From: Patescibacteria group bacterium
GTDB lineage: Bacteria > Patescibacteriota > Patescibacteriia > UBA9934
Length of the DNA stretch: 59,269 bases
Assembly: GCA_018062825.1 (NCBI GenBank)
Contig: JAGORL010000003.1
Span: 138,333 to 197,601, forward strand
Direction: 5' to 3'
The notes beneath the pieces are model-generated. The model was not told where the DNA came from and ran no database searches. It saw only the letters and a program-made list of their open reading frames with translations. The position numbers and the translations under genes are program-made. Within the stretch, counting starts at the first letter, position 1. The number at the start of each line of letters is the position of its first letter. Shown here piece by piece: positions 6,668 to 59,269 of this stretch.

Positions 6668-6684
6668 CGGTGCGGTCGTTTCGT

Positions 6685-6715
6685 ACGAGGGGCAGTTGCC
6701 CCTCGTTATTTTTTT
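6685..6715 (+). terminator. Intrinsic terminator of the small ORF
   Basis: ACGAGGGGCA-GT-TGCCCCTCGT hairpin followed by TATTTTTTT. Confidence 0.75.
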
Positions 6716-7695
6716 CGACGAATTACTTTTTGTGCAGCTTTGATGATCCAAGGCGCTGTTAACTTGTAGTGCTCGAGAAGTTCGTTTGGTTCGCCGGATT
6801 GACCAAAGACGTCTGCAAGGCCGATACGCTCCACGGGAACTGGGAAGGTGCTCGTGACGAGCTCCGCAATGGCGCCACCGAGGCCGGCGGCGGCTTGAGC
6901 TTCTTCTACGGTGACGATCGCTCCACATTCTTTCGCGGCTTTGACGATAACTTCTTCATCTAGCGGTTTGACGCTGACGGCGTTGATCACACGAGCTTCA
7001 ATGCCTTTTTTCTTTAATTCGTGTGCAGCCTTGAGTGCTTCGTAGACAAGTGGGCCGCAAGCAACGATGGCGACGTCTGTGCCATTATGAAAGACTTCAG
7101 CTGTACCAATTGCAAAGGGGGTTTTATCAGTGGTGAAGACGGGGGTTTTTTCACGGGCAAAGCGAATATAGACCGGGCCATCATGTTCAACCGCGGCGAT
7201 GGTGGCTTTTTCGGTTTCTTTAGCATCACATGGCACGAGCACTGTCATGTTTGGTAGAACGCGCATGAGAGCGATGTCTTCTACCATTTGGTGGGTTGCG
7301 CCATCGGGACCCACTGAAACGCCAGCGTGGGCGCCAGCGATTTTTACCGGCATTTCTTGCAAGCAGGCGGTAGTGCGAATCTGCTCCCAGTTCCTACCGG
7401 GAGAGAAGCAGGCGTAGCTTGCAATGAAGGGGATTTTTCCTTGAAGTGCCATGCCGGCAGCGATAGCGGCTAGTGCTTGCTCACTGACACCCATTTGAAT
7501 GAAGCGCTCTGGGAAGGCTTTTTTAAAGGCTTCTGTGCGTGTTGACTCGGTAAGATCGGCACAAAGCACAACAACGCGCTCATTTTTTGTGCCAGCAATA
7601 ACAAGACCGCTTCCAAAACCGTCACGGGTAGGAAGTTGGGGGATGGAGTCCATGAATATTTTGCCGGAAAGTTTGGCGGATTTTGGTACGCTCAT
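6706..7695 (-). CDS. Transketolase, C-terminal (pyrimidine-binding plus C-terminal domain) subunit
   Basis: 329 aa. Typical split-transketolase B chain (GFGSGLV..., MGVSEQ, GPDGATHQ). Confidence 0.9.
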   Translation of the reverse strand: MSVPKSAKLSGKIFMDSIPQLPTRDGFGSGLVIAGTKNERVVVLCADLTESTRTEAFKKAFPERFIQMGVSEQALAAIAAGMALQGKIPFIASYACFSPGRNWEQIRTTACLQEMPVKIAGAHAGVSVGPDGATHQMVEDIALMRVLPNMTVLVPCDAKETEKATIAAVEHDGPVYIRFAREKTPVFTTDKTPFAIGTAEVFHNGTDVAIVACGPLVYEALKAAHELKKKGIEARVINAVSVKPLDEEVIVKAAKECGAIVTVEEAQAAAGLGGAIAELVTSTFPVPVERIGLADVFGQSGEPNELLEHYKLTAPWIIKAAQKVIRRKK

Positions 7696-7696
7696 A

Positions 7697-8578
7697 TTAT
7701 TCGCCTTCAGAGGTGATTTTTCCGTTCAACGTACGCAGTTGACGCAGAGCGTCATGTAATTCATCTGGCTTGGGTGCTTTTCCGTGCCAGGCGGGTTCGA
7801 ATTCCATGAAATCCACACCTTTGCCGGGAATGGTGTGCGCAATGATCACTGTTGGTTTTTCCCAAATCGTCTTGGCGTGATCGCAGGCCTCTACGATTTC
7901 TCGCATGTTGTGACCGTCGATTTCAAGTACGGCAAAATTGAAGGCTTCGAATTTTTGGCGCAGTGGCTCCAAAGGCATGATGTCTTCAGTGTAGCCGTCG
8001 ATTTGGATGTTGTTGCGATCAATGATCCAAGTGAGGTTGTTGAGTTTATTTTTTCCAGCAAAGAGCGCGGCCTCCCAAGTGATGCCGGCTGCTAATTCAC
8101 CATCACTCATGACGCAGTAGGTGTGCCATGGTTTGTTATCCATTTTAGCAACGTAGGCGGCGCCAGCTGATTGTGGGGAGCCATCTCCAAGTGGACCGGA
8201 GGTGTTTTCTAGGCCTGGTAAGTGACGAAGCTCTGGGTGTCCTTGGAGGCGAGAGCCAAATTTTCTCAAGGTTTTGAGTTCTTCTTTAGGAAAGTAACCA
8301 GCGTGCGCCATTGTTACATAGCGCACCGGAACAATGTGGCCGTTACTTAGGAGGAGTCGATCGCGGTCTTCCCAGTGTGGGCGGCGTGGATCGTGATTTA
8401 AGACGTGAAAATACAGGGCAGTAAAAATATCAGCCATGCCGAGCGGTCCCGCTGAGTGGCCGCTTTTTACGTGTTCGAGCATGGTTAAGATATCGGCTCG
8501 TACTTTGTTGGCCAGTAGTTCGAGTCCGCGAATTTTTTCATCGGTGATGGCTGGATTATTTCTGCGAACTGTTGGCAT
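7697..8578 (-). CDS. Transketolase, N-terminal (thiamine-diphosphate-binding) subunit
   Basis: 293 aa with GHSAGPLGMADI and DGELAAG motifs. Its stop lies 1 nt before the start of the C-terminal subunit. Confidence 0.9.
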   Translation of the reverse strand: MPTVRRNNPAITDEKIRGLELLANKVRADILTMLEHVKSGHSAGPLGMADIFTALYFHVLNHDPRRPHWEDRDRLLLSNGHIVPVRYVTMAHAGYFPKEELKTLRKFGSRLQGHPELRHLPGLENTSGPLGDGSPQSAGAAYVAKMDNKPWHTYCVMSDGELAAGITWEAALFAGKNKLNNLTWIIDRNNIQIDGYTEDIMPLEPLRQKFEAFNFAVLEIDGHNMREIVEACDHAKTIWEKPTVIIAHTIPGKGVDFMEFEPAWHGKAPKPDELHDALRQLRTLNGKITSEGE

Positions 8579-8581
8579 AGG

Positions 8582-8974
8582 CTAGTGCTTGGCGTCTTCT
8601 AGGTTTACTTGTACGAGTGCAAAAATGGCAACAAAGAGTCCGGTGATAAAGTGTGACCAGGTGAATTCACGCATGGTGAGAAAGAGTGCGAAGGGTGCGG
8701 TTGCGATCCAGACACCGAGTCCGAACTGCATCCAGTGCATGGCGCGTAAACCGGCGGTTTTGATGTTTGGCTGTTCAAGCGTTACGACAAGGAGTGAAAG
8801 TACGCTAATGCTTAAGCCGATAATTAAGTCATCCCATCGTAGGAGTTGCATGAGCTCTTCATCTGTAGCGGTTGCAAGGGAAGGGATAAGGCGAGCAATG
8901 TCATCGCCGATAAATGGGACGAGAATCGTCCAGAAGGCGAGGATGAAGATGATCCAATGAAGGGCGCGAAGCAT
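8582..8974 (-). CDS. Hypothetical integral membrane protein (4 predicted helices)
   Basis: 130 aa, almost entirely hydrophobic segments. Lies 3 nt from the tkt gene. Confidence 0.55.
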   Translation of the reverse strand: MLRALHWIIFILAFWTILVPFIGDDIARLIPSLATATDEELMQLLRWDDLIIGLSISVLSLLVVTLEQPNIKTAGLRAMHWMQFGLGVWIATAPFALFLTMREFTWSHFITGLFVAIFALVQVNLEDAKH

Positions 8975-8991
8975 ATGTATGCAGTATACCT

Positions 8992-9030
8992 AAAATAAAA
9001 ACACCCTACGACTAGCGCAGGGTGTTTTTG
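8992..9030 (-). terminator. Intrinsic terminator after 9034..9831
   Basis: ACACCCT-loop-AGGGTGT followed by TTTTTATTTT on the minus strand. Confidence 0.7.
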
Positions 9031-9033
9031 TGA

Positions 9034-9831
9034 TTACTCGACGTAGATAGCGCCGGAGTTTGAACTGTCGTAACCGTCGTAGAAGGAATAGATACCCTCT
9101 TCTGTGAAGCGCTTTGTGAATGTTTCGCCGTTATTCATTGTTCCGCTACCCCATGAGAAGTCATCTGCGGTTACGGAGTGTGGGGCGGAAGTGTTGTTGA
9201 TGAACTTTACAACCTGACCTTCACTGATGGTGACATCAAGTGGCGAGAAGCCGTCTGTACCGATGTTGATCACCTTTGGAGCTACAAGGTTGCGATCGTT
9301 GTTGATGCTTGAAGCATTCTCCATGGCGGTTGTGACGTTGTAGTCGCCGGTGTCTTCAATGGCTTCACCGATGGTGTAGTTGGAGAAGAAGCCGTCAGCG
9401 ATGTCATCGATCTTCTTGTTCCAGTCTGCGCCGTACAAAGCGATAGCAACAGCCTCTGAGGTTACGTGACGAAGAGTGCTGTTCTCATCAATGGCGTATG
9501 TTTTTGGATCAGTGTTGATCTTTACCATGCGTACGCCTGGTTTGTAGGTAACGTTGCCGCCAATTTGAATCTTGGCAAGTTCTGCGTCTGAGATGGTCTT
9601 AACGGTATTGAAGTTGCTGTACCAGGTGAAGTACGCCTTGTCGTTTGGAAAAACGTAGCGGAAACCGTCGGCACCAACGTAGTACACGGCGGAGAATGAA
9701 GTACCGCGCACAAGATCACCTGAGTTAACGGTTGTAGCAGCCTGTGCTCCTTGTGCTAAGAAGGCGAGGCTTACTGCTGAAGCTGCAAAAGCAACGGCGG
9801 CAATAGAGATAGCAATGCGAGTACGCGTCAT
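9034..9831 (-). CDS. Secreted protein with C-terminal cupredoxin-like beta-sandwich domain
   Basis: Signal peptide (AISIAAVAFAASAVSLAFLAQGAQA). The C-terminus VKFINNTSAPHSVTADD...GIYSFYDGY...GAIYVE resembles plastocyanin/amicyanin-like folds. Confidence 0.55.
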   Translation of the reverse strand: MTRTRIAISIAAVAFAASAVSLAFLAQGAQAATTVNSGDLVRGTSFSAVYYVGADGFRYVFPNDKAYFTWYSNFNTVKTISDAELAKIQIGGNVTYKPGVRMVKINTDPKTYAIDENSTLRHVTSEAVAIALYGADWNKKIDDIADGFFSNYTIGEAIEDTGDYNVTTAMENASSINNDRNLVAPKVINIGTDGFSPLDVTISEGQVVKFINNTSAPHSVTADDFSWGSGTMNNGETFTKRFTEEGIYSFYDGYDSSNSGAIYVE

Positions 9832-11291: not shown

Positions 11292-14183
11292 ATGTCCGAG
11301 CCCAAGAAGATGACCCACGCCCAAGCTGAACATGAAGTATTAGCCTATTGGGATGCCCATAAGGTATTTCAGCGTTCAGTCGATGAGCGACCAAAGAGCA
11401 AGCCGTATACGTTTTACGATGGTCCGCCGTTTGCAACGGGCTTGCCGCATTATGGTCATTTGCTGCAATCAATCGTGAAGGACGCGGTGCCGCGCTATTT
11501 TACGATGCGTGGTTACCGAGTTGAGCGTACGTGGGGTTGGGATTGTCATGGCTTACCAATTGAGAATTTGGTTGAGAAGCAGTTTGATTTAAAGAGCCGG
11601 AAAGATATTGAGGAATACGGCGTTGGTGCTTTTAATGATCGTTGTGAGGCGCTTGTGATGGGGTATGCCAAGGAATGGAATACCGTTATTCGCCGCTTGG
11701 GGCGCTGGGTTGATATGGATAACGCCTACAAGACCATGGACACACCGTTCATGGAGTCTATTTGGTGGGCGTTTAAGGAGCTTTATGAGAAGGGCAAGAT
11801 TTATGAGGGGCATAAGGCGATGCAGCTTTGCCCACGCTGCGAAACCACACTTTCTAACTTTGAGGTAACGCAGGGTTACGCTGACGCGACTGATATTTCG
11901 GTAACGGCGAGCGTGGAATTAACTAGTGGGCCATGGAAGGGCGCTAAGGCACTTCTTTGGACAACCACGCCATGGACGCTTCCTGGAAACGTGCTTTTGG
12001 CAGTTGGTGCTGACATGGAATATGCGCTTGTTGAACATGATGGTGTTCGTTACGTGCTCGCTAGTAGTTTGATCGACAAGGTTTTTAAGGGTAAGGAGTA
12101 TTCAATTGTAGAAAAGGCTTCTGGTAGTACGCTCACGGGATCAACGTATGATCCTTTGTTCCCTTACTTTAGAACGCACGCGAATGCTTTCCGAGTAGTT
12201 TCCGCAGACTTTGTAACGGATACTGATGGAACGGGCATTGTGCACATTGCTCCTGGTTTTGGTTCTGATGACATGGCGCTTGGTGAGGCGGAAAATGTAG
12301 CTCCGATCATCCACGTGAAGGAGAATGGTCAGTATGTTGATGAGGTAGCAGTGCCGCTAACTGAAGAGGGGTATGCGGTTACAGGTGTGCCGATGAAAGC
12401 TAAGGGGGAGTACTCCGTGATTGATATTCAAATCATTAAATGGTTGGCGCATAAGGGAAAGTTGTTTGCCAAAGAGAAGTTTACGCATAGCTACCCACAC
12501 TGTTGGCGCTGTGATACGCCGCTTTTGAATTACGGAGCGAGTTCCTGGTTTGTGCGGGTGAGTGAGATGTCTGAGGACCTTGTGAAGAGTAATGAGCTCA
12601 TTCACTGGGTACCGGATTCCGTGAAGCATGGTCGTTTTGGGAAGTGGCTTGAGGGCGCGCGCGATTGGGCGATTTCTCGTTCACGTTTTTGGGGTACGCC
12701 GCTTCCGGTATGGCGTGCGGAAGATGGCGAGATTCTCGTTATTGGGAGCGTTAGCGAGCTTGAAGGGTACGTTGGCCATAAGGTAACGAACTTGCATAAG
12801 CACGTGGTTGATAGTTTGGCGATTGAAAAGAACGGAAAGACATTCCGCCGTATTCCTGAAGTTTTGGATTGTTGGTTTGAGTCTGGCTCTATGCCATATG
12901 CTCAGCTGCATTACCCGTTTGAGAATAAGGAGCTATTTGAGCAGCGCTTGCCGGCGCAGTTTATTGGCGAAGCACAAGATCAGACCCGTGGTTGGTTCTA
13001 TACGCTCCACGTGCTTTCTAATGCGCTTTTCCATAAGCCGGCGTATGAGAATGTGATTGTGAGCGGCATTATTTTGGCGGAAGATGGCAAGAAGATGAGT
13101 AAGCGCCTCAATAACTACCCTGATCCGATGGAGGTGATGGAGAAGTATGGTGCTGATGCGGTGCGCTATTACATTATTTCCTCGCCGGTTGTTCGTGGTG
13201 AGAATCTTCGCTTTAGCGAGGCGGGTGTTGATGAGATTTCAAAGAAGTTTATTGCGATCTTGAAGAATGTCGCCGCTTTCTACTCGCTTTACAGCGAACA
13301 TGATGACGGCCGAAAGCCAAAGGGGGAACATGTGCTTGATGCGTGGATTTTGGCGCGTATGTATGAAACGCTCGCGCAAGAAACGAAGGCAATGGAAGCT
13401 TACGAGCTACCAGACGCGGCACGTGTGCTTCAGCACTTCGTGACAGATCTTTCTACTTGGTACGTGCGTCGCAGTCGTGATCGTATGAAAGAGGCGGGAG
13501 AGGATCGAGCGGAGGCGCTTGCGACTTTACGAACCGTGCTTGAGACTTTTGCAAAGATGCTTGCGCCGTTCATGCCGTTTTTGGCGGAGATGGTATACCG
13601 GGAGATCGGAGATCGGGGATCGGAGGAGAGGGTTTCTGTGCACCTTGAAATGTGGCCGGACGTGAATACAGAACTTGCTCAATCATCTGTCCTTGAGGCG
13701 ATGGGGGAACTACGTGGACTTGTTTCTCGTGGTCTTGAGGCGCGCGAGGCAGCTGGAATGCCAATTAAACAGGTGCTTGCTTCAGCTTCTATTACGTTAC
13801 CAGAGGGTGAGCTCTCAGAGGCGTACGTTTCCGTCTTTAAGGACGAAGTGAACGTAAAAAATGTATTCATCCAGAAGGGTGAGTTAGCGGTTGCCCTTGA
13901 TTTCACGTTGACCCCGGAGCTTATCCGTGAGGGCATGGCGCGTGAGGTAACGCGTAAGGTGAATGGCTTGCGAAAGGAGACGGCGCTCACTATTCAACAC
14001 CGTATCGCACTTTCTATTTGGAGTGATGACGCTGAAGTGCAGAAGATGTTTGAGGAGCATGGTGACGCGATTGCTGCTGACACCTTGAGTGCGTCAATTG
14101 AGTTTGGAAAGATCACTGAACCGGTTGCACAGGCAAGTTTTAGAGTTGCTGAGCATGAGGTGTGGGTGGGGTTTAAGGTGTAG
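11292..14183 (+). CDS. ileS: Isoleucine--tRNA ligase
   Basis: 963 aa with HIGH-type motif (PHYGHLL), KMSKRL, and a WCISRQ-like segment (WAISRSRFWG). Confidence 0.95.
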   Translation: MSEPKKMTHAQAEHEVLAYWDAHKVFQRSVDERPKSKPYTFYDGPPFATGLPHYGHLLQSIVKDAVPRYFTMRGYRVERTWGWDCHGLPIENLVEKQFDLKSRKDIEEYGVGAFNDRCEALVMGYAKEWNTVIRRLGRWVDMDNAYKTMDTPFMESIWWAFKELYEKGKIYEGHKAMQLCPRCETTLSNFEVTQGYADATDISVTASVELTSGPWKGAKALLWTTTPWTLPGNVLLAVGADMEYALVEHDGVRYVLASSLIDKVFKGKEYSIVEKASGSTLTGSTYDPLFPYFRTHANAFRVVSADFVTDTDGTGIVHIAPGFGSDDMALGEAENVAPIIHVKENGQYVDEVAVPLTEEGYAVTGVPMKAKGEYSVIDIQIIKWLAHKGKLFAKEKFTHSYPHCWRCDTPLLNYGASSWFVRVSEMSEDLVKSNELIHWVPDSVKHGRFGKWLEGARDWAISRSRFWGTPLPVWRAEDGEILVIGSVSELEGYVGHKVTNLHKHVVDSLAIEKNGKTFRRIPEVLDCWFESGSMPYAQLHYPFENKELFEQRLPAQFIGEAQDQTRGWFYTLHVLSNALFHKPAYENVIVSGIILAEDGKKMSKRLNNYPDPMEVMEKYGADAVRYYIISSPVVRGENLRFSEAGVDEISKKFIAILKNVAAFYSLYSEHDDGRKPKGEHVLDAWILARMYETLAQETKAMEAYELPDAARVLQHFVTDLSTWYVRRSRDRMKEAGEDRAEALATLRTVLETFAKMLAPFMPFLAEMVYREIGDRGSEERVSVHLEMWPDVNTELAQSSVLEAMGELRGLVSRGLEAREAAGMPIKQVLASASITLPEGELSEAYVSVFKDEVNVKNVFIQKGELAVALDFTLTPELIREGMAREVTRKVNGLRKETALTIQHRIALSIWSDDAEVQKMFEEHGDAIAADTLSASIEFGKITEPVAQASFRVAEHEVWVGFKV

Positions 14184-14195
14184 GGAATAGGGAAT

Positions 14196-14250
14196 AGGCC
14201 CACTTCGTCCGGCAGAGCCGGACTACGTTGGGGCTGTAAGTAGGGAGTAG
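14196..14250 (+). repeat. Dispersed intergenic repeat, copy A (GGCCCACTTCGTCCGG-loop-CCGGACTACGTTGGGGCT..TAGGGAGTAG)
   Basis: Near-identical to 15876-15929, with a degenerate copy at 33102-33153. Contains a 6 bp GTCCGG/CCGGAC hairpin. Confidence 0.8.
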
Positions 14251-14724: not shown

Positions 14725-14977
14725 ATGCGTGAAGTATACAGGGAGTGGGCGGTAGTACGTAGGGAGTAGGTGATGTGCATGAAAATAAATCGCCCTCCCG
14801 AGAGTGGGAGGACGACGGGCCGCGGCAGGCACGCTTGTTCTTGACCTTGGTGCGGTCTTGGAAGCGGCCGGTGTGGCGATTCACGATGTTGTCGCGCGTG
14901 CTCTGCTTGGGAGCACGAACGACAATCTTGTTCGGGTCGCGCTTTGGGGGCGCGACGGGTTGAGATTTCTGTTTCAA
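14666..14977 (-). CDS. Small Lys/Arg-rich ORF (TTG start, strong SD) with an intrinsic terminator inside the frame
   Basis: AGGAGG (14989-14984), 6 nt, TTG 14977. Translation MKQKSQPVAPPKRDPNKIVVRAPKQSTRDNIVNRHTGRFQDRTKVKNKRA... The first in-frame stop is at 14666, inside the next gene, and the G+C-rich character ends near 14800. Confidence 0.4.
   Translation of the reverse strand: MKQKSQPVAPPKRDPNKIVVRAPKQSTRDNIVNRHTGRFQDRTKVKNKRACRGPSSSHSREGDLFSCTSPTPYVLPPTPCILHAYAPTYDSSRHPRIRKIDVR
14781..14811 (-). terminator. Intrinsic terminator located within the small basic ORF
   Basis: The minus strand reads CCTCCC-ACTCTC-GGGAGG then GCGATTTATTTTC. Confidence 0.6.
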
Positions 14978-15069
14978 GAGACGCCTCCTGGAAAGATTCT
15001 ATCAGAGATTTGATAGTGTCTTTATGGGAGGCCTGACCGAGTGCTTGCGCAATCGGTCAGGCGAGGCGG

Positions 15070-15657
15070 CTAGCTCAGCTGGAGCTTCACCGCGAGCGAG
15101 TTGATCAGGCGGACCTTGTCGTCGTCGATCACCTCGCCGGCGAGCATCTTCTCGATGTCGGGGGAGAGCTCGGCGGTCTGGCGCGGCGTGATCGGACCGG
15201 GGTACCAGGTCCAGAGCATGCCGTCCTCTTTGCCGACGATCACCCAGATGTCGCTCGTCTTCTCGAGCTCGCCCTGCCACGGCATCACGAGCTCGGGCCC
15301 GTGCGCACCGTCCACGAGACGCACGAGCTTGCGCTCGTTGTCCGTGAGATCGCCGTACAGCTTGACCCCGGTGCGGCCGATGAGGCCGGTGGGGAGCTTG
15401 ACGTGGAAGTAGCGGGCCTTGAAGAAGAAGGCGGTGGGTGGGAGATCGGTCTCGAACTTCTCTTCGAACTCCAGCGTCTCCGTGAGGAGCGCGACGGTGT
15501 CGTCGAGGGTCGAGATGTTCTCCACGTAGCTGCCGCGGTTTCCCGTGACGTCGTTGACGCGCACGAGGCCGTCCAGGTGCTTGGCCTCGGTCTTGCCGTC
15601 GGCGACGCTCTGCTTGAGGCTCTCGATCGCGGCGGACACGGTGGCGGTGGCGGTCAT
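15070..15657 (-). CDS. Hypothetical protein (195 aa), G+C-rich orphan
   Basis: Clean GC3-biased frame (MTATATVSAAIESLKQSVADGK...). The other five frames give Arg/Gly/Pro-rich shadow ORFs. No family recognised. Confidence 0.65.
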   Translation of the reverse strand: MTATATVSAAIESLKQSVADGKTEAKHLDGLVRVNDVTGNRGSYVENISTLDDTVALLTETLEFEEKFETDLPPTAFFFKARYFHVKLPTGLIGRTGVKLYGDLTDNERKLVRLVDGAHGPELVMPWQGELEKTSDIWVIVGKEDGMLWTWYPGPITPRQTAELSPDIEKMLAGEVIDDDKVRLINSLAVKLQLS

Positions 15658-15790
15658 GTGATGAACTCTGCGGTGAATGTCGCACGCTGGCGACCGGTTA
15701 AGGAACGAGTGATTCGCACCTCGCAGATGAGAAGTGATTCTCAGCTATGAGGTGCCCTGCATGACTGTTCATGCAACAACTTAACGATCT

Positions 15791-15819: not shown

Positions 15820-15875
15820 TGATTTTTGATGATTATTTGGCTAATATTAGTGTATAAAAATGGGGGTGGGGTATA

Positions 15876-15929
15876 GGTCCACTTCGTCCGGTAGGTCCGG
15901 ACTACGTTGGGGCTATAGGTAGGGAGTAG
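15876..15929 (+). repeat. Dispersed intergenic repeat, copy B
   Basis: GGTCCACTTCGTCCGGTAGGTCCGGACTACGTTGGGGCTATAGGTAGGGAGTAG; compare copy A. Confidence 0.8.
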
Positions 15930-15930
15930 G

Positions 15931-16626
15931 GGGTGGTCCCTCGATGCTGGTGAATGATCATCGGCATTGAGGGACCCTCGAGCGCGAACACTCGAGGTGA
16001 GAAGGTTGACATACACCCCACGCGGCCGTGGGGACGGTATGTCAGCGTCCGGAAACCTCCGGTAGTTGCTCTGCATGAGCGCGTCGCTGTGTGACCGTAG
16101 TCTTGCCCGTTTTTCGCCTTGATGCGCCGATTGGTCGCGCACGGCACCCCACTTGTGTGGGTAAGGGACTAGCTTAGATTGCTGTTGGGCTAAGCACCCG
16201 CAAGGACTCGGAGTTTAAGGGGGCTACCTTCCAATGTACTCACCCCACTCCACGCCGTCGCGTGGGTTCTCCTTCCTGTCTTGCTCGGGGTATGCCTCCC
16301 CTTTACCCTTTGTCTTTCGACATTGAGATAGACCTGAGCGTGGCCGAACTCTGAGAATCGCCTATGGTTACCCATACTCGACTCAGTGGAGTGCTCAACG
16401 TGCGGCGTTGAGCGAGAGGTGTGCAAACGACTCTGAATCTTCAATAAGCACGGTATTGAAGATTCAGAGCGTCCCTCAATGCATTCTCCGGAAGCATTGA
16501 GCGTGCGTGAACGCCTTGCCTTACCGTCCTCCTGTTGCGGTCCTTATGATGCCCGGTGGGCTTCATGAAAGATGATCGCAAGCCGGATAGGTAACGCGTT
16601 GTCATGCGGCACTGACGCCAACTTGA
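15931..16626 (-). ncRNA. Candidate large structured RNA (unclassified), about 700 nt
   Basis: No credible ORF. There is a dense series of stable hairpins: 15935-15976 (13 bp), 15977-15996, 16007-16044, 16394-16412, 16431-16469 (16 bp perfect) and 16475-16501. A good minus-strand promoter sits at 16633-16661. The strand call rests on that promoter alone. Confidence 0.45.
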
Positions 16627-16632
16627 CGGAGT

Positions 16633-16661
16633 ATCGTAGCACGGCCAGTTGCAATAATCAA
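16633..16661 (-). promoter_or_regulatory. Promoter TTGATT-17-(TGC)TACGAT reading into the ORF-less segment
   Basis: The minus strand reads TTGATT (16661-16656), a 17 nt spacer ending in TGC, then TACGAT (16638-16633). Confidence 0.55.
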
Positions 16662-16743
16662 TGTTTTTACCCTTGCAAAATGTACTTTTTTACACAAATC
16701 TCAGAAAATAGGCATTGTAGGTGATATAATATGTCACAGATTT

Positions 16744-31810: not shown

Positions 31811-31841
31811 AAATGAAAAACCCCGTAGAAACGGGGTTTTT
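31811..31841 (-). terminator. Intrinsic terminator of rnpB
   Basis: The minus strand reads AAAAACCCCGT-TTCT-ACGGGGTTTTTC. Confidence 0.8.
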
Positions 31842-31843
31842 CA

Positions 31844-32361
31844 GCAGGCGGTGCCGATAAGCCGAATTTTGTCTCACTTCTTATTGCGACGCAATGAGAA
31901 GTCAGGACGACCATCTCTCTTGTTCTTGTATTGCTACAAGACTTTAGCGAGCGACCGAATCTTGCTCTTGCACCAAAACGGGTTTGCCGCCACTGCATGT
32001 CACCATGCAGGGAGTGTGGTTGCACGCTAGTTACCTAGCGCACCTTCCGCACACGTTTCACTTTTCTTCACCTTGCTTACGCGAGGGTGAATAGTCTGTC
32101 TCTGTTGCGTACTACGTTACCGTTTCCAGTAGGCAGTACCCCGAAAATTCTTTCGTTTTCTCGAGACTTTCCCTAGGTTTGCCTCGAAAGTGAGGGATAG
32201 CTGCGTGCAGCCAATCCAATCCCTCACCACCGAAGGTATGCCTGGTCGCCGTTAGCGACGTTTTTTCTCATTGTGCCGTTGCCGACACACGGGTGTTCGG
32301 ACTTTCCTCACCTTTTCACCCTTTTTCAAGGATGGAGGGCGCGGTCGTCTGGCACGCCTGC
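31844..32361 (-). ncRNA. rnpB: RNase P RNA (bacterial type), unusually long at about 518 nt
   Basis: The minus strand contains GAGGAAAGTCCGAACAC (P4 5' strand) and GACAAAATTCGGCTTATCGG (P4 3' strand, ACAGAA..CGGCTTA-like). P1 pairs GCAGGCGTGCC with GGCACCGCCTGC. The -10 TGCTAATAT sits exactly 7 nt upstream of the 5' G. Confidence 0.85.
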
Positions 32362-32368
32362 GGGTTTT

Positions 32369-32400
32369 ATATTAGCAGAAAAAGAGGGGAAAGTAAAGAC
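32369..32400 (-). promoter_or_regulatory. rnpB promoter (TTTACT-17-(TGC)TAATAT)
   Basis: TAATAT at 32374-32369 (minus), TGC at 32377-32375, and a -35-like TTTACT 17 nt upstream. Confidence 0.65.
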
Positions 32401-32532
32401 AAACGCCCTAGTCCGAAGACGAGGGCGTCGAGTGTCACCCAGCAGTCGCACGAGGGCGTTGCTGGCACGTATATTTTGGCCGGGCGGCCAATGTGGAGGT
32501 AGTGATGTAGGAACAGTCGACCGGGCGGTCGA

Positions 32533-33012
32533 CTAGCTGATGGCGGCGCCGATGAAGCGCGCGAGCGCCTCGGTGCTGATCTGGTTCGTGATCTGGTCCT
32601 GGAGCTCGATGAACGCGTTGTTCACCGAGTCGCGCTTCGCTTCGCTCGACACACAGTAGAACATCACGCTGCGAGCGCGACGCACGAGCTGGCTCGCTTC
32701 GCTTGCGGAGAGCGTGTCGTGATTCGGGCACTCCTCGGGGTAGCAGAGGCGCGTGGCCTCGACGAGCATCTTGCCCTTCGGCAGGGCGTCGATGCCGTTG
32801 CGCTTCAGCGAGTCCGTGAGAACCTGGAACCGATCACGGTCCGCCTGACTGGTCAGGTTGTTGGCCGGGCTGTTCTTCTTGAACGCTTCCTGGGACTTGC
32901 GCGCGCGCTCCTGCTCTGCGAAGAGCATGGGCGGTTGCGACTTGCTCGTGCGGGCCGGGCGGCGTTCACGAGGCACGGGGGTGGCGGTGGGGGTGACAGA
33001 ACGGAGTTCCAA
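32533..33012 (-). CDS. Hypothetical protein (159 aa), G+C-rich orphan with basic disordered N-terminus
   Basis: TTG start with GAGGT 5 nt upstream and a GC3-biased frame. Promoter TTGCTA-16-(TGC)TATACT at 33061-33088. Confidence 0.55.
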   Translation of the reverse strand: MELRSVTPTATPVPRERRPARTSKSQPPMLFAEQERARKSQEAFKKNSPANNLTSQADRDRFQVLTDSLKRNGIDALPKGKMLVEATRLCYPEECPNHDTLSASEASQLVRRARSVMFYCVSSEAKRDSVNNAFIELQDQITNQISTEALARFIGAAIS

Positions 33013-33060
33013 GGTTGACCTCTGATTGGACGTGACGCACCCGGGAGTGGATGCGTACGA

Positions 33061-33088
33061 AGTATAGCAGAATGGCTTAAATTAGCAA
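33061..33088 (-). promoter_or_regulatory. Promoter TTGCTA-16-(TGC)TATACT
   Basis: The minus strand has TTGCTA (33088-33083) and TATACT (33066-33061). Confidence 0.6.
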
Positions 33089-33101
33089 GAAAAGGGGTTA
33101 G

Positions 33102-33153
33102 GGCCCACTTCATCCTAGCGGACTACGTTAGGACTGGAAAGTAGGAAGTAGGG
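33102..33153 (+). repeat. Dispersed intergenic repeat, degenerate copy C
   Basis: GGCCCACTTCATCCTAGCGGACTACGTTAGGACTGGAAAGTAGGAAGTAGGG aligns with copies A and B. Confidence 0.65.
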
Positions 33154-33196
33154 TGAAAAGAAGACCGCCCCAGTTCCGTGAGAGGAATGGGGCGGT
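33153..33196 (-). terminator. Intrinsic terminator after 33225..33884
   Basis: The minus strand reads ACCGCCCCA-loop-TGGGGCGGT then CTTCTTTTC. Confidence 0.65.
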
Positions 33197-33224
33197 GCGG
33201 GTGGTGCTGTCTTGAGGACGCTGT

Positions 33225-33884
33225 CTACTTGGCGGAGGCGACCATCTCCGCCGGTTCCGGCGAGAGGAAGTCCTGCCGGCGGGCGGCGAGCTCCTTCTCG
33301 CGGCTCGAGCGGGCGTTCACGCCGCAGAAGCAGTCGGCGAAGAGGAGGATGTCGCCGTCCTGGAGGTGGCGCTGCAGCATGACATCGTCGCTCGAGAGCC
33401 GGACGAGGTCACCGCGGATCAGGGTCTGGGTGATCTGCTCGACGACCGCGAGGGTCATGGCCTTGTTGATCGAGGTGGCGGTGCAGAACTTGGCCCACTG
33501 AGTGCGCCAAGCGTTGTGCGCCTTGAGCTTCTCGCCATCCATGCGGACGGCGCGCTCGGTGGCACCGATGATGTCGCGGATGCGCGAGTCCAGGAAGAGC
33601 TCGGGCGAGTTCTCGATCACGCACTTGATGGTGATCATGGCGCAGATGGCGGGGTGAGGCCGCATGACGTGCGCGACGATCGCGTTCTTCGCGGCGTCGA
33701 AGCCGCGGGCCACGCGCTTCTTGACGGTGGAGGTGCGGACCCGGGTGGTGACCTGGGTCGTCTCCGGTGCCGGGCGGCGCTCGGAGGGGGTGCGGCTCGG
33801 GCCGCGGTGGCCGTGCGGGAAGGAGCGGGCGTGGGCGGCGTGGTGCGATGCAGTCTGCAAGGGACTCTCCTTGTTGAGTTTCAC
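33225..33884 (-). CDS. Hypothetical protein (about 211-219 aa), G+C-rich orphan with basic His/Arg/Pro-rich N-terminus
   Basis: Very strong GC3 bias in this frame only. The likely true start is TTG 33860, preceded by AAGGAG. The -10 (TGC)TAATGT lies at 33913-33921. Confidence 0.6.
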   Translation of the reverse strand: MKLNKESPLQTASHHAAHARSFPHGHRGPSRTPSERRPAPETTQVTTRVRTSTVKKRVARGFDAAKNAIVAHVMRPHPAICAMITIKCVIENSPELFLDSRIRDIIGATERAVRMDGEKLKAHNAWRTQWAKFCTATSINKAMTLAVVEQITQTLIRGDLVRLSSDDVMLQRHLQDGDILLFADCFCGVNARSSREKELAARRQDFLSPEPAEMVASAK

Positions 33885-33928
33885 GCTTCACCAACCACGG
33901 TAAAGCTCGCGAACATTAGCAGAATATT

Positions 33929-33965
33929 AAAAAAAGAGCAACTCGTGCCGGCGTGGCACGAGTTG
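33929..33965 (-). terminator. Intrinsic terminator after 33971..34249
   Basis: The minus strand reads CAACTCGTGCC-loop-GGCACGAGTTG then CTCTTTTTTT. Confidence 0.75.
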
Positions 33966-33970
33966 GAGCC

Positions 33971-34249
33971 CTATTCGGGGGCGACGGGGGACGATTCAGC
34001 GATCGACCCGAGAGTGGCGCACAGTAGGTAAGCGCCTACGACGCTGAAGCCGAGGATGTTCTGGGTGTTCAGGCTGGCGAGGTCGGCTTGGTGGCAGGCC
34101 AGAAGGATGATGAGTCCGATCGGTGCACCACCAAGTGAACCGAACGTGAAAGCCTTCATGATGGCCTTGTGAGGGACGGGCTGGTCTGCGTGCATTGCTT
34201 CTCGTTGGCGCAAGCGCCGCAAGAATGGATCCATCATGGACGTGATCAC
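33971..34249 (-). CDS. Small membrane protein (92 aa), G+C-rich
   Basis: Two hydrophobic helices (FGSLGGAPIGLIILLAC, ILGFSVVGAYLLCATLG). GAGGTGA SD upstream. Confidence 0.5.
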   Translation of the reverse strand: MITSMMDPFLRRLRQREAMHADQPVPHKAIMKAFTFGSLGGAPIGLIILLACHQADLASLNTQNILGFSVVGAYLLCATLGSIAESSPVAPE

Positions 34250-42845: not shown

Positions 42846-43751
42846 TTAGGAGAGTTTGTGGAGAGTCGTTAGAGCTTCCTCAAGTTCCTGGGGTAAAGGT
42901 GCGCTAAAGGTTTGGGTGGTGCCGTCTGGCAGGGGGATAGTTAGCTGCGTAGCATGAAGGAAGATGCGGCCAAAATTGAATGGCTTTAGATCTTTGCGGT
43001 TGTAGACGGTGTCGCCAGCTACTGGGTGGCCAAAGGCGAACATATGGGCACGAATTTGGTGAGTTCGGCCGGTTTCGATGCGAACGCGCAGGAGGGTGGC
43101 GTTTGCGTACCTTGTTACAACATCAAAGTGGGTGATCGCTTCCTTTCCTTCTTGTGAGGTTGGGCGAGCAGCCATGCGGGCACGCGTTTTTGAGCGAGCG
43201 ATTGGGAAATTGATCGTTTCGGCGTCATCTTTCACGATATCGTGGACGAGGACGGTGTAGATCTTTTCAGCGTGACGATTCTTGAATTGGTCCTTTAAAA
43301 AGGCGTGGGCACGATCGTTTTTAGCGGCAATAAGGACGCCTGAAGCATCTTTATCTAAGCGATGCACGATACCCGAGCGGGTTTTATCTCCTCCAACGCC
43401 CTCTATGGCTGGGTAGTGTGCAAGCAGTGTGTCTGCCACGGTCCAGGTTTTGCTTGTTGCGGTAGGGTGAACAAGTAGGCCAGCGGGCTTGTTTACGACG
43501 ATAACATCATCATTTTCAAAGAGAATCGGCACCGTTACCACCTCTTTTTTAACCTTTTTCTCAATTTTTTTATCAAAAGTGATCACGTCCTCGTTATTGG
43601 CAATAACGTGAGGTGTTACTTCTATGCCATTCATCTTTACCTCGCCACTTTTAATGAGGCGCTGTGCTTGAACGCGGCTAACCTTAAGCGCGGCCGCAAG
43701 GGCGACATCGAGACGCTTTGGTTCAGTAATAGCGAGGTTTACGGTTTTCAT
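42846..43751 (-). CDS. RluA-family pseudouridine synthase (RluD-like) with S4 domain
   Basis: HRLDKDASGVLIAAK catalytic motif, a GRTHQIRAH motif, and an N-terminal S4 domain. Confidence 0.85.
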   Translation of the reverse strand: MKTVNLAITEPKRLDVALAAALKVSRVQAQRLIKSGEVKMNGIEVTPHVIANNEDVITFDKKIEKKVKKEVVTVPILFENDDVIVVNKPAGLLVHPTATSKTWTVADTLLAHYPAIEGVGGDKTRSGIVHRLDKDASGVLIAAKNDRAHAFLKDQFKNRHAEKIYTVLVHDIVKDDAETINFPIARSKTRARMAARPTSQEGKEAITHFDVVTRYANATLLRVRIETGRTHQIRAHMFAFGHPVAGDTVYNRKDLKPFNFGRIFLHATQLTIPLPDGTTQTFSAPLPQELEEALTTLHKLS

Positions 43752-43800
43752 GGGGGGAGTATGGCATTCTTTCGGTTTTTTTGCTAGTCTTGGCGGGCGT

Positions 43801-43877
43801 GGGCGTGTAGCTCAGTCGGTTAGAGCTCCGAGCTTATACCTCGGTGGTCCTTGGTTCGAATCCAAGCACGCCTACCA
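43801..43877 (+). tRNA. tRNA-Ile (anticodon UAU), CCA encoded
   Basis: Manual cloverleaf: acceptor GGGCGTG/CACGCCT, D-arm GCTC/GAGC, anticodon stem CCGAG/CTCGG with loop CTTATAC, T-arm CTTGG-TTCGAAT-CCAAG. Confidence 0.85.
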
Positions 43878-43880
43878 CAC

Positions 43881-44006
43881 GAGAAACGCTTTAAAATTTT
43901 CCATGACTGTGTCGACGGCTTGCGCTCCGGCCTCAACGTACGTTTGTAGTACGTCTCGGTCGGTGCTCGCCGTCTCCTTGTCCTGAAAAATTTTAAAGCG
44001 TTTCTC
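43881..44006 (+). repeat. tRNA-linked hairpin-bracketed element, copy E1
   Basis: The outer 21 bp inverted repeat GAGAAACGCTTTAAAATTTTC / GAAAATTTTAAAGCGTTTCTC encloses a core with a central ACGTAC-GTTTGTA-GTACGT hairpin. Confidence 0.75.
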
Positions 44007-44010
44007 CGGT

Positions 44011-44131
44011 GAGATGTTCTTCATGACTGGCGGTGTCGTCGGCCTTGGGCTCGGACTCAACGTACATTTGTAGTACGTTTCGTCCTGTGCCAGGCCATCT
44101 CCTAGCCAGCGAAAATTATAGAACATTTCTC
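44011..44131 (+). repeat. tRNA-linked hairpin-bracketed element, copy E2 (tandem to E1)
   Basis: Outer inverted repeat GAGATGTTCT / AGAACATTTCTC. The core is about 85-90 percent identical by eye to the copy at 59155-59269. Confidence 0.75.
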
Positions 44132-44218
44132 TATACAGGTTTTGTCGCGTAATAAGATGCGATAATTGTTCGTGAGAATTTCCGTTTGATCTGTCTGCGG
44201 TACAATAGAGATGTTTCT

Positions 44219-44380
44219 ATGATATTCATCCCATTCTTACTTCTTGGGCTTTCGATCGCATTTTTCTACCTGGCTCACGTGCAGGAGAACAGTCAGATGC
44301 GTTCGTTTGGTTTCATTTTGCTTATAGCGTCACTTGGGTCGGGATTTATTACGTACATTGCACTAAGTGCCTTGGGCTAA
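44219..44380 (+). CDS. Small membrane protein (53 aa)
   Basis: Two hydrophobic helices. TACAAT -10 at 44201-44206, 12 nt before the ATG. Confidence 0.4.
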   Translation: MIFIPFLLLGLSIAFFYLAHVQENSQMRSFGFILLIASLGSGFITYIALSALG

Positions 44381-44381
44381 T

Positions 44382-44783
44382 ATGCTTGCGAATCTTTTTT
44401 CTTCTTTAACTTTTTCCCTCTTTCTCCTGTGGTTTCTGACGTATTGGATTTTAGGCGGAATTTTATTTGCAACCGTGGCGGCCTCTAAGTTCATTCGAGT
44501 TAACAAAGCTATTTTCAGCTGTTTGTTCGCGCTTTGTGCAATGGTTACGGCATATGCAGCTGCCTGGATGGGGCCCTTGGCTGTACGCTCCACCCACCTT
44601 CGTTGTTTACTTGATTCACGAAGCGGTGGCTCAAGTTTGCAGGCCCTCTTTTCTTGCGGTCCCTTTGAGATGATTTTTTCCGGTGTTGTATGGTTCTTTT
44701 TGTTACTCGGGCTTGGGTCTGCTGTCATGGCAGTCAGTGTTCAGCGTCGTGATAAACGCCGTCCGGTTGCAGCGGTAAGTTGA
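44382..44783 (+). CDS. Hypothetical membrane protein (133 aa)
   Basis: TAATATG junction with the upstream small ORF. Four hydrophobic segments and a basic C-terminus. Confidence 0.45.
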   Translation: MLANLFSSLTFSLFLLWFLTYWILGGILFATVAASKFIRVNKAIFSCLFALCAMVTAYAAAWMGPLAVRSTHLRCLLDSRSGGSSLQALFSCGPFEMIFSGVVWFFLLLGLGSAVMAVSVQRRDKRRPVAAVS

Positions 44784-44838
44784 TTGACATGGTGTAACTT
44801 CGGACGTATAGTTTTACCGCTTTTTTCAAATTCGGTGC

Positions 44839-44915
44839 GGGCGTATAGCTCAGTTGGTTAGAGCGTCACATTGACATTGTGAAGGTCTCTGGTTCGAATC
44901 CAGATACGCCCACCA
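44839..44915 (+). tRNA. tRNA-Val (anticodon GAC), CCA encoded
   Basis: Acceptor GGGCGTA/TACGCCC, anticodon stem TCACA/TGTGA with loop TTGACAT, T-arm TCTGG-TTCGAAT-CCAGA. Confidence 0.9.
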
Positions 44916-44918
44916 TAC

Positions 44919-45047
44919 AAAAAAATCTCTTAAAATAAGCCCCAGCTGTGTCAGAATGACTGGCTTCGGCCTCTCCGTACTCTATCGGTACGGTTCGGCC
45001 TGCAGTGTCATTCTTCCTTGCTGGAACATGTTTTAAGAGATTTTTTT
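44919..45047 (+). repeat. tRNA-linked hairpin-bracketed element, copy E3 (divergent core)
   Basis: Outer inverted repeat AAAAAAATCTCTTAAAA / TTTTAAGAGATTTTTTT. Inner long imperfect hairpin GAATGACTGGCTTCGGCC...GGCCTGCAGTGTCATTC. A partial extra right end (CTAGCCAGCGAAAATCATATGAGG, CTTTTAAGAGATT) follows to about 45163. Confidence 0.65.
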
Positions 45048-45164
45048 ATACAAACATTGCATTGTGCAACCGATTTGTTGCGGACTGTTTGCTAGCCAGC
45101 GAAAATCATATGAGGTTTTTCGTTCGCAAGATTGCATCGCCGAAAATTCTTTTAAGAGATTAGA

Positions 45165-46217
45165 CTATTCTTTTTCAATAATAATCATGCCGTTTGGCAT
45201 AGGGGTAACTGGGGTGTGGTTACCTGAGGGATAGTCCATGAGGGAGTCAGCAATGATGGCTTCTGTATATGGGTAGTTGGCGCCATTTTGTGTGCCCGGG
45301 TCGTGCGTAAGGAATGTTTGTGTGCCGGGATCGTAGCCGACGATAAGCGCCATGTGGCGAAGCGGTCCGCCGCCTATGAAGTTTGGATTTTGTAGTTTAA
45401 TGCCGTTGACGGCGACGATGACGATATTGCCCTTGGCTAGCTCATTTTTAATGTCTTCGGTAGTGATATTTTTTTGCACTGTGAAATTTGTGAAGTTGAG
45501 ATAGCTACCGAGAAGGTTGTTTGCAGTGTCATCAATAGAGCTATCCATAAAGTATCCGAACTGCTCATTTTGCCAGTCGGACATGCTTGTTATGAGTTCT
45601 AGCGCTCGTTCTTTTGATAGATCTTCACCGCGCGCCCAGGCGACGGCCATGATCGCCGATGATTCTTCGCAGCCATCTTGTTGACGTGGATCGCTCCAGT
45701 CGCCGAGCGGTGCCTGGGCGATAAATGGAACGACATTTGTGATTTTGGCATTCTCATCAGTCGCTATCGAGATTTGAGTCAGGTTAGCGTTTGTTATGCC
45801 GAGTCCGTACGTACGCATCACTTCTAGGGCGTCGGTTGGTCGGCCTAGATAGATGCGCTTTAGCGAGACAGGGTCCACGTACCACGCTTCACCTTTTGAT
45901 TCGACCGCAAGCAGAATTTTGCCGGATACGCGTTTGCTTAATTCTTGATCCCCAGTGAATGTTTGTACAGCTGTTGGGATCTTGGCGAGATTTTGATTGG
46001 AAATTCCGAGCGCTTGTTCTCGCATTATATTCCAGGCATCCTCTGGTTTTCCGAGAGAGAATCTGGTTTTGGTATCCGGATTTATGTACCAAGCTTCGCC
46101 GCGTGATTCTACTTGCAGCAAAATGCGACCAGCGAGACGTTCGCTCAATGTTTCCCCTTGGGCTTGGTAGGGGATGGTTAATGCCAGTGCTGTCAGTGCA
46201 AGAAGTGATTTTTTCAT
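45165..46217 (-). CDS. Secreted peptidase C39-like (papain-fold) protein with two N-terminal tandem repeats
   Basis: Signal peptide, two roughly 55 aa repeats (ILLQVESRGEAWYINP... and ILLAVESKGEAWYVDP...), and a C-terminal domain VPFIAQAP...QDGCEESS...HMALIVGYD (Cys/His pattern). Confidence 0.6.
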   Translation of the reverse strand: MKKSLLALTALALTIPYQAQGETLSERLAGRILLQVESRGEAWYINPDTKTRFSLGKPEDAWNIMREQALGISNQNLAKIPTAVQTFTGDQELSKRVSGKILLAVESKGEAWYVDPVSLKRIYLGRPTDALEVMRTYGLGITNANLTQISIATDENAKITNVVPFIAQAPLGDWSDPRQQDGCEESSAIMAVAWARGEDLSKERALELITSMSDWQNEQFGYFMDSSIDDTANNLLGSYLNFTNFTVQKNITTEDIKNELAKGNIVIVAVNGIKLQNPNFIGGGPLRHMALIVGYDPGTQTFLTHDPGTQNGANYPYTEAIIADSLMDYPSGNHTPVTPMPNGMIIIEKE

Positions 46218-59072: not shown

Positions 59073-59148
59073 GGGCCTTTAGCTCAGCTGGTAGAGCGCT
59101 TCCATGGCATGGAAGAGGTCAGCGGTTCGATCCCGCTAAGGTCCACCA
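59073..59148 (+). tRNA. tRNA-Ala (anticodon GGC), CCA encoded
   Basis: Acceptor GGGCCTT/AAGGTCC with the G3:U70 identity pair, anticodon loop ATGGCAT, T-arm AGCGG-TTCGATC-CCGCT. Confidence 0.9.
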
Positions 59149-59154
59149 TAAAAA

Positions 59155-59269
59155 CTTCATATAATTTCCTCTGGCAGTGTCGTCAGCCTTGGGCACGGAT
59201 TCAACGTACATTTGCAGTACGTTTCGTCCTGCGCGAGACCGTCTCCTGGCTAGTGAAAATTATATGAGG
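59155..59269 (+). repeat. tRNA-linked hairpin-bracketed element, copy E4 (reaches the window end)
   Basis: Outer inverted repeat CTTCATATAATTTCC / GAAAATTATATGAGG. The core is near-identical to E2 (GTGTCGTC.GCCTTGGGC.CGGA.TCAACGTACATTTG.AGTACGTTTCGTCCTG). Confidence 0.75.

Follow-up and report, generated by a model that had tools for sequence, protein, structure and literature searches.

Hairpin elements abutting tRNA genes of a Patescibacteria group bacterium: probable copies of a dispersed palindromic repeat family present in several bacterial phyla

The stretch of DNA analyzed here (the window: 59,269 nucleotides, positions 138,333 to 197,601 of contig JAGORL010000003.1, GenBank assembly GCA_018062825.1, from a Patescibacteria group bacterium) carries genes for tRNA-Ile, tRNA-Val and tRNA-Ala that are each followed, almost without a gap, by a long hairpin-forming element or, in the case of tRNA-Ile, by two such elements in tandem. 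We refer to these elements as E1 to E4 (Table 1). An initial annotation had described them as a family sharing a conserved core, and had read them as a tRNA-linked RNA gene, with foldback elements resembling miniature inverted-repeat transposable elements (MITEs) or elaborate terminators as its alternatives. Those alternatives fit our data better. With a probability of roughly 0.6, E1 to E4 are copies of a non-autonomous dispersed palindromic repeat, of the MITE, ERIC or REPIN kind, that occurs in several bacterial phyla.

The four hairpins and their common core are real. Their 94-nt cores (43903-43996, 44027-44120, 44942-45035 and 59171-59264) align with a mean column identity of 78% and a single 1-nt gap, and a 31-nt core pattern matches the window only at E1 to E4, with 0.02 matches expected by chance. 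A covariance model of an 83-nt core, seeded with E2, E3, E4 and three foreign copies, recovered E1 from outside the seed (63 bits, E 2e-17) and, with filters off, gave no match above 21 bits in the rest of the window. E3, previously regarded as merely analogous, is a true homologue at 92 bits. Each element folds into one long imperfect hairpin, with a minimum free energy (MFE) of -62.8 kcal/mol for E1 (z -9.6 against shuffled sequence), -47.7 kcal/mol for E2 (z -3.5), -57.6 kcal/mol for E3 (z -8.4) and -43.8 kcal/mol for E4 (z -5.2). The elements do start close to the encoded CCA, at 1 or 3 nt and not at the 3 to 6 nt first given. The "partial extra end" annotated past E3 does contain 3'-end sequence of the family, in the form of two orphan 3' halves, and the region as a whole (45048-45170) does not fold (z +0.5). 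The sole open reading frame (ORF) of the E1-E2 span, at 43872-44126 on the minus strand, was rejected as coding: the region is rearranged in a close relative, and the ORF is not conserved.

E1 consists of a 20-bp outer helix (GAGAAACGCTTTAAAATTTTC / GAAAAATTTTAAAGCGTTTCTC), an internal loop TGTGTC/TCCTT, a TC/TC loop and an apical stem ACGTAC-N7-GTACGT, while E3 has a 19-bp outer helix between A7 and T7 (AAAAAAATCTCTTAAAA...TTTTAAGAGATTTTTTT) and thereby the shape of a bidirectional terminator. The perfect complementarity originally claimed for all outer helices does not extend to E2 and E4. In E2, the 3' box GAAAATTATA is unpaired, its partner is missing from the 5' arm, and the outermost stem contains a 2-nt bulge; the outer helix of E4 includes one G.T and one C.A. 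Beyond the end of the window, E4 reads ...ATATGAGGTTTTTTT in the near-identical contig L119 (loci from other genomes are cited here by L numbers), where A5/T7 tracts lengthen the helix, and this contig completes the element, including its last bases and T7 tail, as ...ATATGAGGTTTTTTTG. The outer inverted repeats, furthermore, are not unrelated between copies, as had been thought, but diverged forms of common terminal boxes, (G)AAAAC..., CTCTTAAAAT/ATTTTAAGAG and TATAATTTC/GAAAATTATA, which recur in other genomes.

Table 1. Positions in the window of E1 to E4, of related fragments and of adjoining features
Feature	Coordinates	Strand	Basis and remarks
tRNA-Ile(TAT)	43801..43877	+	ARAGORN; Rfam tRNA, 71.5 bits
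E1, full copy	43881..44006	+	Starts 3 nt past CCA of tRNA-Ile; covariance model 63.3 bits, non-seed
E2, second copy in tandem with E1, 5' outer arm damaged	44011..44131	+	Covariance model 99.6 bits, seed
Promoter-like TTGACA-17-TATAGT	44784..44812	+	About 26 nt 5' of tRNA-Val; consensus match only, 11/12
tRNA-Val(GAC)	44839..44915	+	ARAGORN; Rfam 75 bits
E3, full copy	44919..45047	+	Starts 3 nt past CCA of tRNA-Val; covariance model 92.3 bits
Orphan 3' end of E2/E4 type (CTAGCCAGCGAAAATCATATGAGGTTTTTCG), without 5' partner	45092..45122	+	Repeat family D6, 80% to 3' end of E2; box search
Orphan 3' end of E3 type (GAAAATTCTTTTAAGAGATT)	45142..45161	+	Sequence reading
C39-peptidase gene, convergent	45165-46217	-	Pfam; stop codon abutted by the orphan end 45142-45161
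tRNA-Ala(GGC)	59073..59148	+	ARAGORN; Rfam 63.3 bits
E4, full copy truncated by window end	59150..59269	+	Starts 1 nt past CCA of tRNA-Ala; covariance model 88.5 bits

Best named hits and gene order assign the window to an Uhrbacteria-like member of the Patescibacteria. The family extends far beyond this contig. When species-representative genomes were scanned for the core pattern, 47 loci matched, and about 28 of them have the same kind of hairpin: 12 in Acidobacteriota (all on one chromosome), 7 in Nitrospira (strain NFB02 has 4 loci), 2 in Uhrbacteria, 2 in Kapaibacterium and 6 in metagenome-assembled genomes (MAGs) labelled 'Gammaproteobacteria'. One of the latter, the 'uncultured Gammaproteobacteria' MAG CAZREA01 (L022, L035, L038), has the same cmk-rluD-tRNA-Ile(TAT)-tRNA-Val-cca order as the window and an RluD that is 57% identical; judging from these two features, it is probably a Patescibacterium. 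Scanning metagenomes with the core pattern added dozens of copies, mainly from soil Acidobacteria-like subfamilies, and the covariance model produced 76 matches in 72 sources, some of them missed by the pattern. Diverged copies also lie directly 5' of tRNA-Leu(CAG) in L123 (about 14965-15034) and L125 (about 16620-16688), where the 3' half of the core reads ...GGTGA..GCAAC.CCGCAG.TGG. Since these two escaped the covariance model at E<=0.01, the family must be larger than counted. A BLAST search of a plasmid collection with one window copy and one Acidobacteriota copy found no match, and viral contigs gave a single match, apparently by chance inside a coding sequence. Like the initial annotation, we found no described family that corresponds to these elements: with Rfam 15, neither the window copies nor 16 loci reached a gathering score, and nothing matched up to E=10 over 43700-45300. 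Our limited literature search likewise found no description, and the motif is missing from the REP tables of PMC6006769.

Copies are non-coding and 115-215 bp long, below the limit of about 400 bp set for a bacterial MITE, and their arms pair from end to end. In all of them the outer helix leads through a short helix to an internal loop, beyond which lie two or three variable helices, the TC/TC mismatch loop and an apical stem of 5-6 bp closed by a variable loop of 5-7 nt. The internal loop places GTGTC opposite TCCTT in Patescibacteria and CGTTATACG opposite GTCTTCC in Acidobacteriota. The core is common to several phyla and the terminal boxes differ among subfamilies, the termini being GAAAAC..., GAGAAAC..., GGCGCGG... 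or (C)TAGCCC.... That the hairpin is under constraint, as first proposed, is borne out by 69 distinct copies, in which 87.9% of cells are paired as opposed to 65.8% after shuffling and 27-37% with slid partners, and doubly changed cells number 344 versus 115 in shuffles; fitting of the alignment to the model inflates these values, but the margin is large. Covariation is strong in four helices, which are accompanied by the two conserved internal loops, and even the apical stem covaries in L123 (CGTAC/GTACG to CGTAGG/CCTACG).

Pairing that is conserved without conservation of sequence is insufficient to call an RNA gene, as mobile palindromes that recombine as whole hairpins mimic the same signal. 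In a close relative (RluD 90% identical to that of the window, flanks about 95% identical), the tRNA-Ile site (L117) has an intact copy of the E2/E4 type where the window has E1, and E1 itself persists behind that copy only as its 3' half; the tRNA-Val site (L127) has an E1-type interior within an E3-like outer stem. One T>C change in that outer stem is compensated by A>G in the opposite arm, and L127 also retains a remnant like the orphan end at 45142-45161. An element occupies the site 3' of tRNA-Ile in the window, L117 and L035, whereas none is present there in L019, L120, L122, L123 and L125; the site 3' of tRNA-Val is occupied in the window and L127, with a plain terminator in the other relatives compared. 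In distant Uhrbacteria, a plain A4-5/stem/T4-5 terminator stands right after tRNA-Val and no element follows tRNA-Ile, where a small ORF begins 6-20 nt past the CCA; some of these genomes have copies 5' of tRNA-Ile, tRNA-Val or tRNA-Leu(CAG). Over short times, therefore, copies appear and disappear, become truncated and recombine.

Dispersal within genomes points in the same direction. In Nitrospira NFB02, 215-bp copies that are 94-100% identical lie in unrelated flanks, and one metagenome (Ga0247727) contains a 196-bp subfamily with 90-97% identity, again in unique flanks. Copies from both sources end in C-TA-G...C-TA-G; L024 ends in TTAA...TTAA and L073 in TTA...TAG, which fits a TA duplication in an NTAN target and also fits a palindromic terminus. 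The initial annotation had itself named presence/absence polymorphism and recent transposition as signs of a MITE, and the polymorphism and rearrangement between close relatives, together with near-identical dispersed copies and TA-type flanks, count against its RNA-gene reading.

We also considered whether a terminator already in place had received the core in its loop, which would make the outer helix local DNA, an idea that is attractive for E3. We mostly rejected it because the outer box AAAACCTCTTAAAAT recurs at unrelated sites (past tmRNA in L022 and past tRNA-Val in L127) and because GAAAACCTACCCAAGTTT recurs in five genomes.

A further property of the family is its placement at the edges of genes, and here the possibility that every copy is tRNA-adjacent fails, as there is no tRNA close to the copies of Acidobacteriota and Nitrospira. 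In the former phylum, the outer helix begins 2-10 nt past a stop codon whose gene runs in the same direction; Pfam-confirmed genes 5' of these copies encode GGDEF-EAL (L093), TonB_C (L018) and DegV (L041) proteins. The stop codons directly before Acidobacteriota copies are TAG or TAA in 8/9 cases, a small sample. In genomes of about 70% GC, TGA is usually the dominant stop codon. In Patescibacteria-type genomes, copies abut genes for tRNA or transfer-messenger RNA (tmRNA) on either side. At eight sites (the three of the window, L015, L020, L022, L038 and L035) the element is on the tRNA strand, 1-6 nt past the CCA, and at twelve (L019, twice; L035; L021; L047; L026; L034; L065; L022; L122; and L123, twice) it is on the opposite strand, 2-10 nt before the 5' end of the tRNA or tmRNA. 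The end with the GTGTC box faces the gene at 20/20 of these tRNA/tmRNA-adjacent sites, which are not phylogenetically independent. Because the element is in opposite orientation at the 12 upstream sites, the tRNA transcript there would carry its complementary strand. In one MAG, tmRNA and tRNA-Ile are each flanked by an inverted pair of copies, the upstream ones with the box CCAAGTTT/AAACTTAGT and the downstream ones with TTAAAAT/ATTTTAA, and opposite orientations are found 500 bp apart. Each 8-kb locus has one or two copies, and the neighbors are large housekeeping genes.

Considering these data, we propose the following scenario. Copies would become established, or persist, nowhere but at outer gene edges: past the CCA of a tRNA or tmRNA, before its 5' end, or past a stop codon, and always with the same end toward the gene. 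They would multiply, decay to half-copies and swap their interiors with other copies of the same genome by recombination, with transposition presumably carried out in trans by a transposase. The mover may be an IS630-like enzyme, to judge from the TA/CTAG flanks in the Nitrospira subfamily. Selection on the fold would be one of the forces that keep the arms paired, the other being recombination that exchanges whole hairpin interiors, both arms together.

Once in place, the window elements would be transcribed as 3' trailers of tRNA-Ile, tRNA-Val and tRNA-Ala. Such co-transcription, already proposed in the initial annotation, is likely because there is no space for a terminator between CCA and element, and the promoter-like site 5' of tRNA-Val, a consensus match, would imply an independent tRNA-Val-E3 transcript. 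T7 follows the hairpins of E3 and E4, directly after the tRNAs, and both the other tRNAs of the window and orthologous tRNA-Val genes have a short hairpin plus T-tract terminator in the same slot. By their make-up, E3 and E4 probably end transcripts in place of the plain intrinsic terminators of relatives, possibly in both directions. E1 has no T tract, and E2 is followed by only T4, 12 nt away.

Similar elements have been described in other bacteria. Bacterial MITEs are described as shorter than 200 bp, with terminal inverted repeats and a fold into long stem-loops, and they often lie where genes end and share their transcripts; ERIC elements have TA flanks, and SPRITE is terminator-like (PMC3184786). 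Like the present family, ERIC/IRU of Enterobacteriaceae and Correia/NEMIS of Neisseria are imperfect palindromes of about 100-160 bp that form one long hairpin; they are multicopy, intergenic, often located just 3' of genes, co-transcribed and non-coding, and they are gained and lost between related strains (PMC3184786). TA on both flanks of ERIC and Correia (PMC3184786) may have its counterpart in the C-TA-G ends of the Nitrospira subfamily. Unlike them, our family has an internal core conserved across phyla and subfamily-specific termini, window copies without a visible target duplication, one end that always faces the gene, and one strand that folds better in nearly all copies. Furthermore, ERIC and Correia are each limited to a single bacterial family, whereas the present elements occur in several phyla. 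A dispersed repeat of about 105 bp found 3' of genes, with an intrinsic-terminator-like fold (PMC3184786), resembles the E3 and E4 hairpins with their T7 tracts in terminator slots, but it is unrelated in sequence, and some copies of our family have no T tract or lie 5' of tRNAs. REP/REPIN sequences, which are mobilized by RAYT (TnpA-REP), share with our family long extragenic hairpins that are kept paired, within-genome populations, tandem clusters and proximity to stop codons (PMC3116915, PMC6006769). Unlike them, the present copies have no GT[AG]G or CGTC foot (criteria of PMC6006769 and PMC3733652), are not built of two inverted short REPs and conserve the tip of the hairpin rather than its ends.

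Several observations weigh against a repeat of this kind or against the terminator role assigned to some of its copies. First, no autonomous copy and no transposase partner was present in the 128 loci examined. When 1817 flanking ORFs from 8-20 kb around the copies were clustered, recurrent neighbors proved to be housekeeping families, spurious GC-rich ORFs or products of synteny, and none was transposase-like or a recombinase. Second, E1 to E4 and the other Patescibacteria copies have no consistent target-site duplication, with ATAC on both sides of E3. Third, it is the core and not the termini that is conserved across phyla, the reverse of what transposase-driven MITEs predict. Fourth, many substitutions, among them compensated changes between orthologous copies, have left the pairing of the outer helices perfect, a persistence that needs either selection on the fold or whole-hairpin recombination. 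Fifth, simple transposition does not explain the strict polarity and the strand asymmetry described below. With respect to termination, a consensus terminator scan did not list E1 to E4, whose stems are too long for the loop limit of the scan and whose helices are A/T-rich at the base, and copies upstream of a tRNA cannot be efficient terminators, as the downstream tRNA would otherwise not be made.

The strand asymmetry is pronounced. The complement of the tRNA-sense strand (the strand of the core pattern) folds better as RNA in 64/66 distinct copies, by 13.5 kcal/mol on average, and under DNA parameters it is better in 63/66; chance matches of the same pattern have no such bias (14/41). The asymmetry arises mainly from pyrimidine-pyrimidine mismatches and from the loops. 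On the pattern strand, Y.Y mismatches number 119 versus 13 R.R, and A.C 72 versus 26 G.T, the latter difference stemming mainly from one position. Read on the complement, the two conserved loops consist of tandem G.A/A.G, with TC/TC turning into GA/AG and GTGTC/TCCTT into AAGGA/GACAC. Counts of G.U inside the core helices were discarded as a strand test, being near balance (34 vs 26) after removal of one conserved A.C position. The strand predicted to be transcribed is the weaker one for copies 3' of tRNAs or ORFs and the stronger one for copies 5' of tRNAs; since it varies with context, the asymmetry is a property of the family and not tied to the transcribed strand.

The combination of cross-phylum core, gene-facing polarity and strand asymmetry sets the family apart from ERIC, Correia and REP and points to a putative partner protein or function. 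One could imagine that the core of about 60 nt (apical stem, TC/TC loop and GTGTC/TCCTT loop) is itself a functional nucleic-acid module, present in at least four phyla, for which the mobile hairpins serve as vehicles; we regard this as unlikely. A similarly tentative and doubtful extension is that the relevant strand of the module would be the complement of the adjacent gene, in the form of RNA or single-stranded DNA (ssDNA), and that a conserved putative protein would recognize it. The same low expectation applies to the idea that its fixed polarity at gene boundaries reflects, for example, a polar block on transcription that enters the gene, or a recombination site.

The RNA-gene reading of the initial annotation holds that a family of structured small RNAs is made with the neighboring tRNA and then released through RNase P or through 3' processing, with conserved loops that are functional or bind protein. 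The covariation in four helices around two conserved internal loops speaks for it, and a start 1-6 nt past a CCA or an end 2-10 nt before a tRNA 5' end would allow release by exactly those activities. The complement strand, with its tandem G.A/A.G loops and its fold better by 13.5 kcal/mol, is precisely the strand that would be transcribed at upstream copies, where our reading of the sequences finds U.G pairs in the outer helix; no credible -35/-10 pair of a promoter inside these copies was found in the tRNA-facing arm. However, the strand that would be transcribed depends on context (the pattern strand past tRNAs and Acidobacteriota ORFs, the complement before tRNAs), and in the window this would be the less stably folding strand for each of the four elements. 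Given also the majority of copies outside Patescibacteria that are not linked to a tRNA, the lack of an Rfam match, and the gain, loss, truncation and swapping between close relatives, we consider a small RNA gene rather improbable.

Another explanation takes the hairpins to be folded ssDNA sites for an unknown recombinase or HUH enzyme, analogous to attC or REP/RAYT, with the active strand complementary to the upstream gene. Integron attC sites are imperfect palindromes of 60-140 nt that lie directly past ORFs in fixed orientation, conserve structure more than sequence and fold better on the strand complementary to the ORF. The present family may be likened to them in its palindromic form, post-ORF placement, orientation and strand bias: the 115-140-nt imperfect palindromes past stop codons are fixed in orientation, their structure outlasts their sequence, and the strand bias holds under DNA parameters and in the Y.Y to R.R ratio. 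Class 3 Y1 HUH genes of Acidobacteria and Planctomycetes, moreover, are reported to have atypical flanking hairpins in hundreds of copies (PMC6006769). Against these similarities, R''(RYYYAAC)/R'(GTTRRRY) boxes are absent from the termini, neither cassette arrays nor an integrase accompany the copies, and it is the apex and not the base that is conserved; the upstream genes are large and housekeeping, no GTAG foot is present, PMC6006769 lists no such motif in its REP tables, and no recombinase gene was seen among the flanking ORFs examined. A replication-linked orientation of the IS200/IS605 kind was rejected: the pattern strand lies on the G-rich flank in 26 cases and on the C-rich flank in 23, and opposite orientations occur within 500 bp and on the two sides of one tmRNA, contrary to a lagging-strand mechanism. 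We regard ssDNA sites as quite improbable.

Ordinary host intrinsic terminators grown long, alike by common descent or convergence and without mobility, are likewise quite improbable: the A-tract/hairpin/T7 arrangement of E3 and E4 in the tRNA terminator slot, the Acidobacteriota copies right past stop codons and stems evolving by compensatory change, as in the tRNA-Val terminators of relatives, agree with this explanation, but a 30-nt core common to phyla cannot be convergent, copies 90-100% identical occur at unrelated loci, E1 has no T tract, upstream copies lie between promoter and tRNA, and tandem copies and half-copies exist.

If E1 to E4 are indeed dispersed palindromic repeats, such elements would remodel the DNA on either side of tRNA and tmRNA genes and take the place of their terminators in the very small genomes of Patescibacteria. 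They may also drive local rearrangements. Relative to tRNA-Ile, tRNA-Val(GAC) is in the opposite orientation in L019, L035 and L122 and in the same orientation in L120, L123 and L125, with flanking gene order kept, and inverted copies of the element could mediate these flips. At 4968-6623 of L125/L126, a locus of an Uhrbacteria relative without a copy of the element, lies a 551-aa ORF with a weak match to the IS110-type Transposase_20, and between this ORF and tRNA-Val some 2.6 kb (6624-9193) have no called genes.

The tRNA-Ile(TAT) gene (anticodon UAU) beside rluD is conserved in all Uhrbacteria loci examined (the window, L019, L035, L117 and L120-L125). Most bacteria decode AUA with a lysidine-modified CAU tRNA.

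Elsewhere in the window, a second, unrelated repeat family (...CCACTTCGTCCGG-N5-CCGGACTACGTTGGGGCT..GTAGGGAGTAG) has two copies that are 85% identical, at 14183-14250 and 15862-15929, one of them directly past the IleRS stop codon, with shorter GTAGGGAGTAG-type fragments at 219-273, 3977-4017 and 14729-14769. Within a minus-strand ORF at 15002-15685 that has no Pfam match, a 107-nt near-perfect hairpin (15150-15256, plus strand; -56 kcal/mol, z -3.6) matches the covariance model weakly (17 bits) and does not contain the core sequence of the family. The gene for bacterial class A RNase P RNA (31841-32360, minus strand) scores 108.5 bits against a gathering score of 100 and spans 520 nt compared with the 367 positions of the model, implying an extra insert of about 150 nt. 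Beside it lies a GC-rich island (32000-34050; 61.5% vs about 48%) with overlapping ORFs on both strands (32533-33012, 33225-33884 and 33366-34031), none of which has a Pfam match, and with a weak covariance-model match at 33457-33538 whose fold is no better than shuffles. Across the whole window, the plus strand has a GC skew of +0.09 to +0.23 and a mostly negative AT skew irrespective of gene direction, from which the window seems to lie within one replichore.

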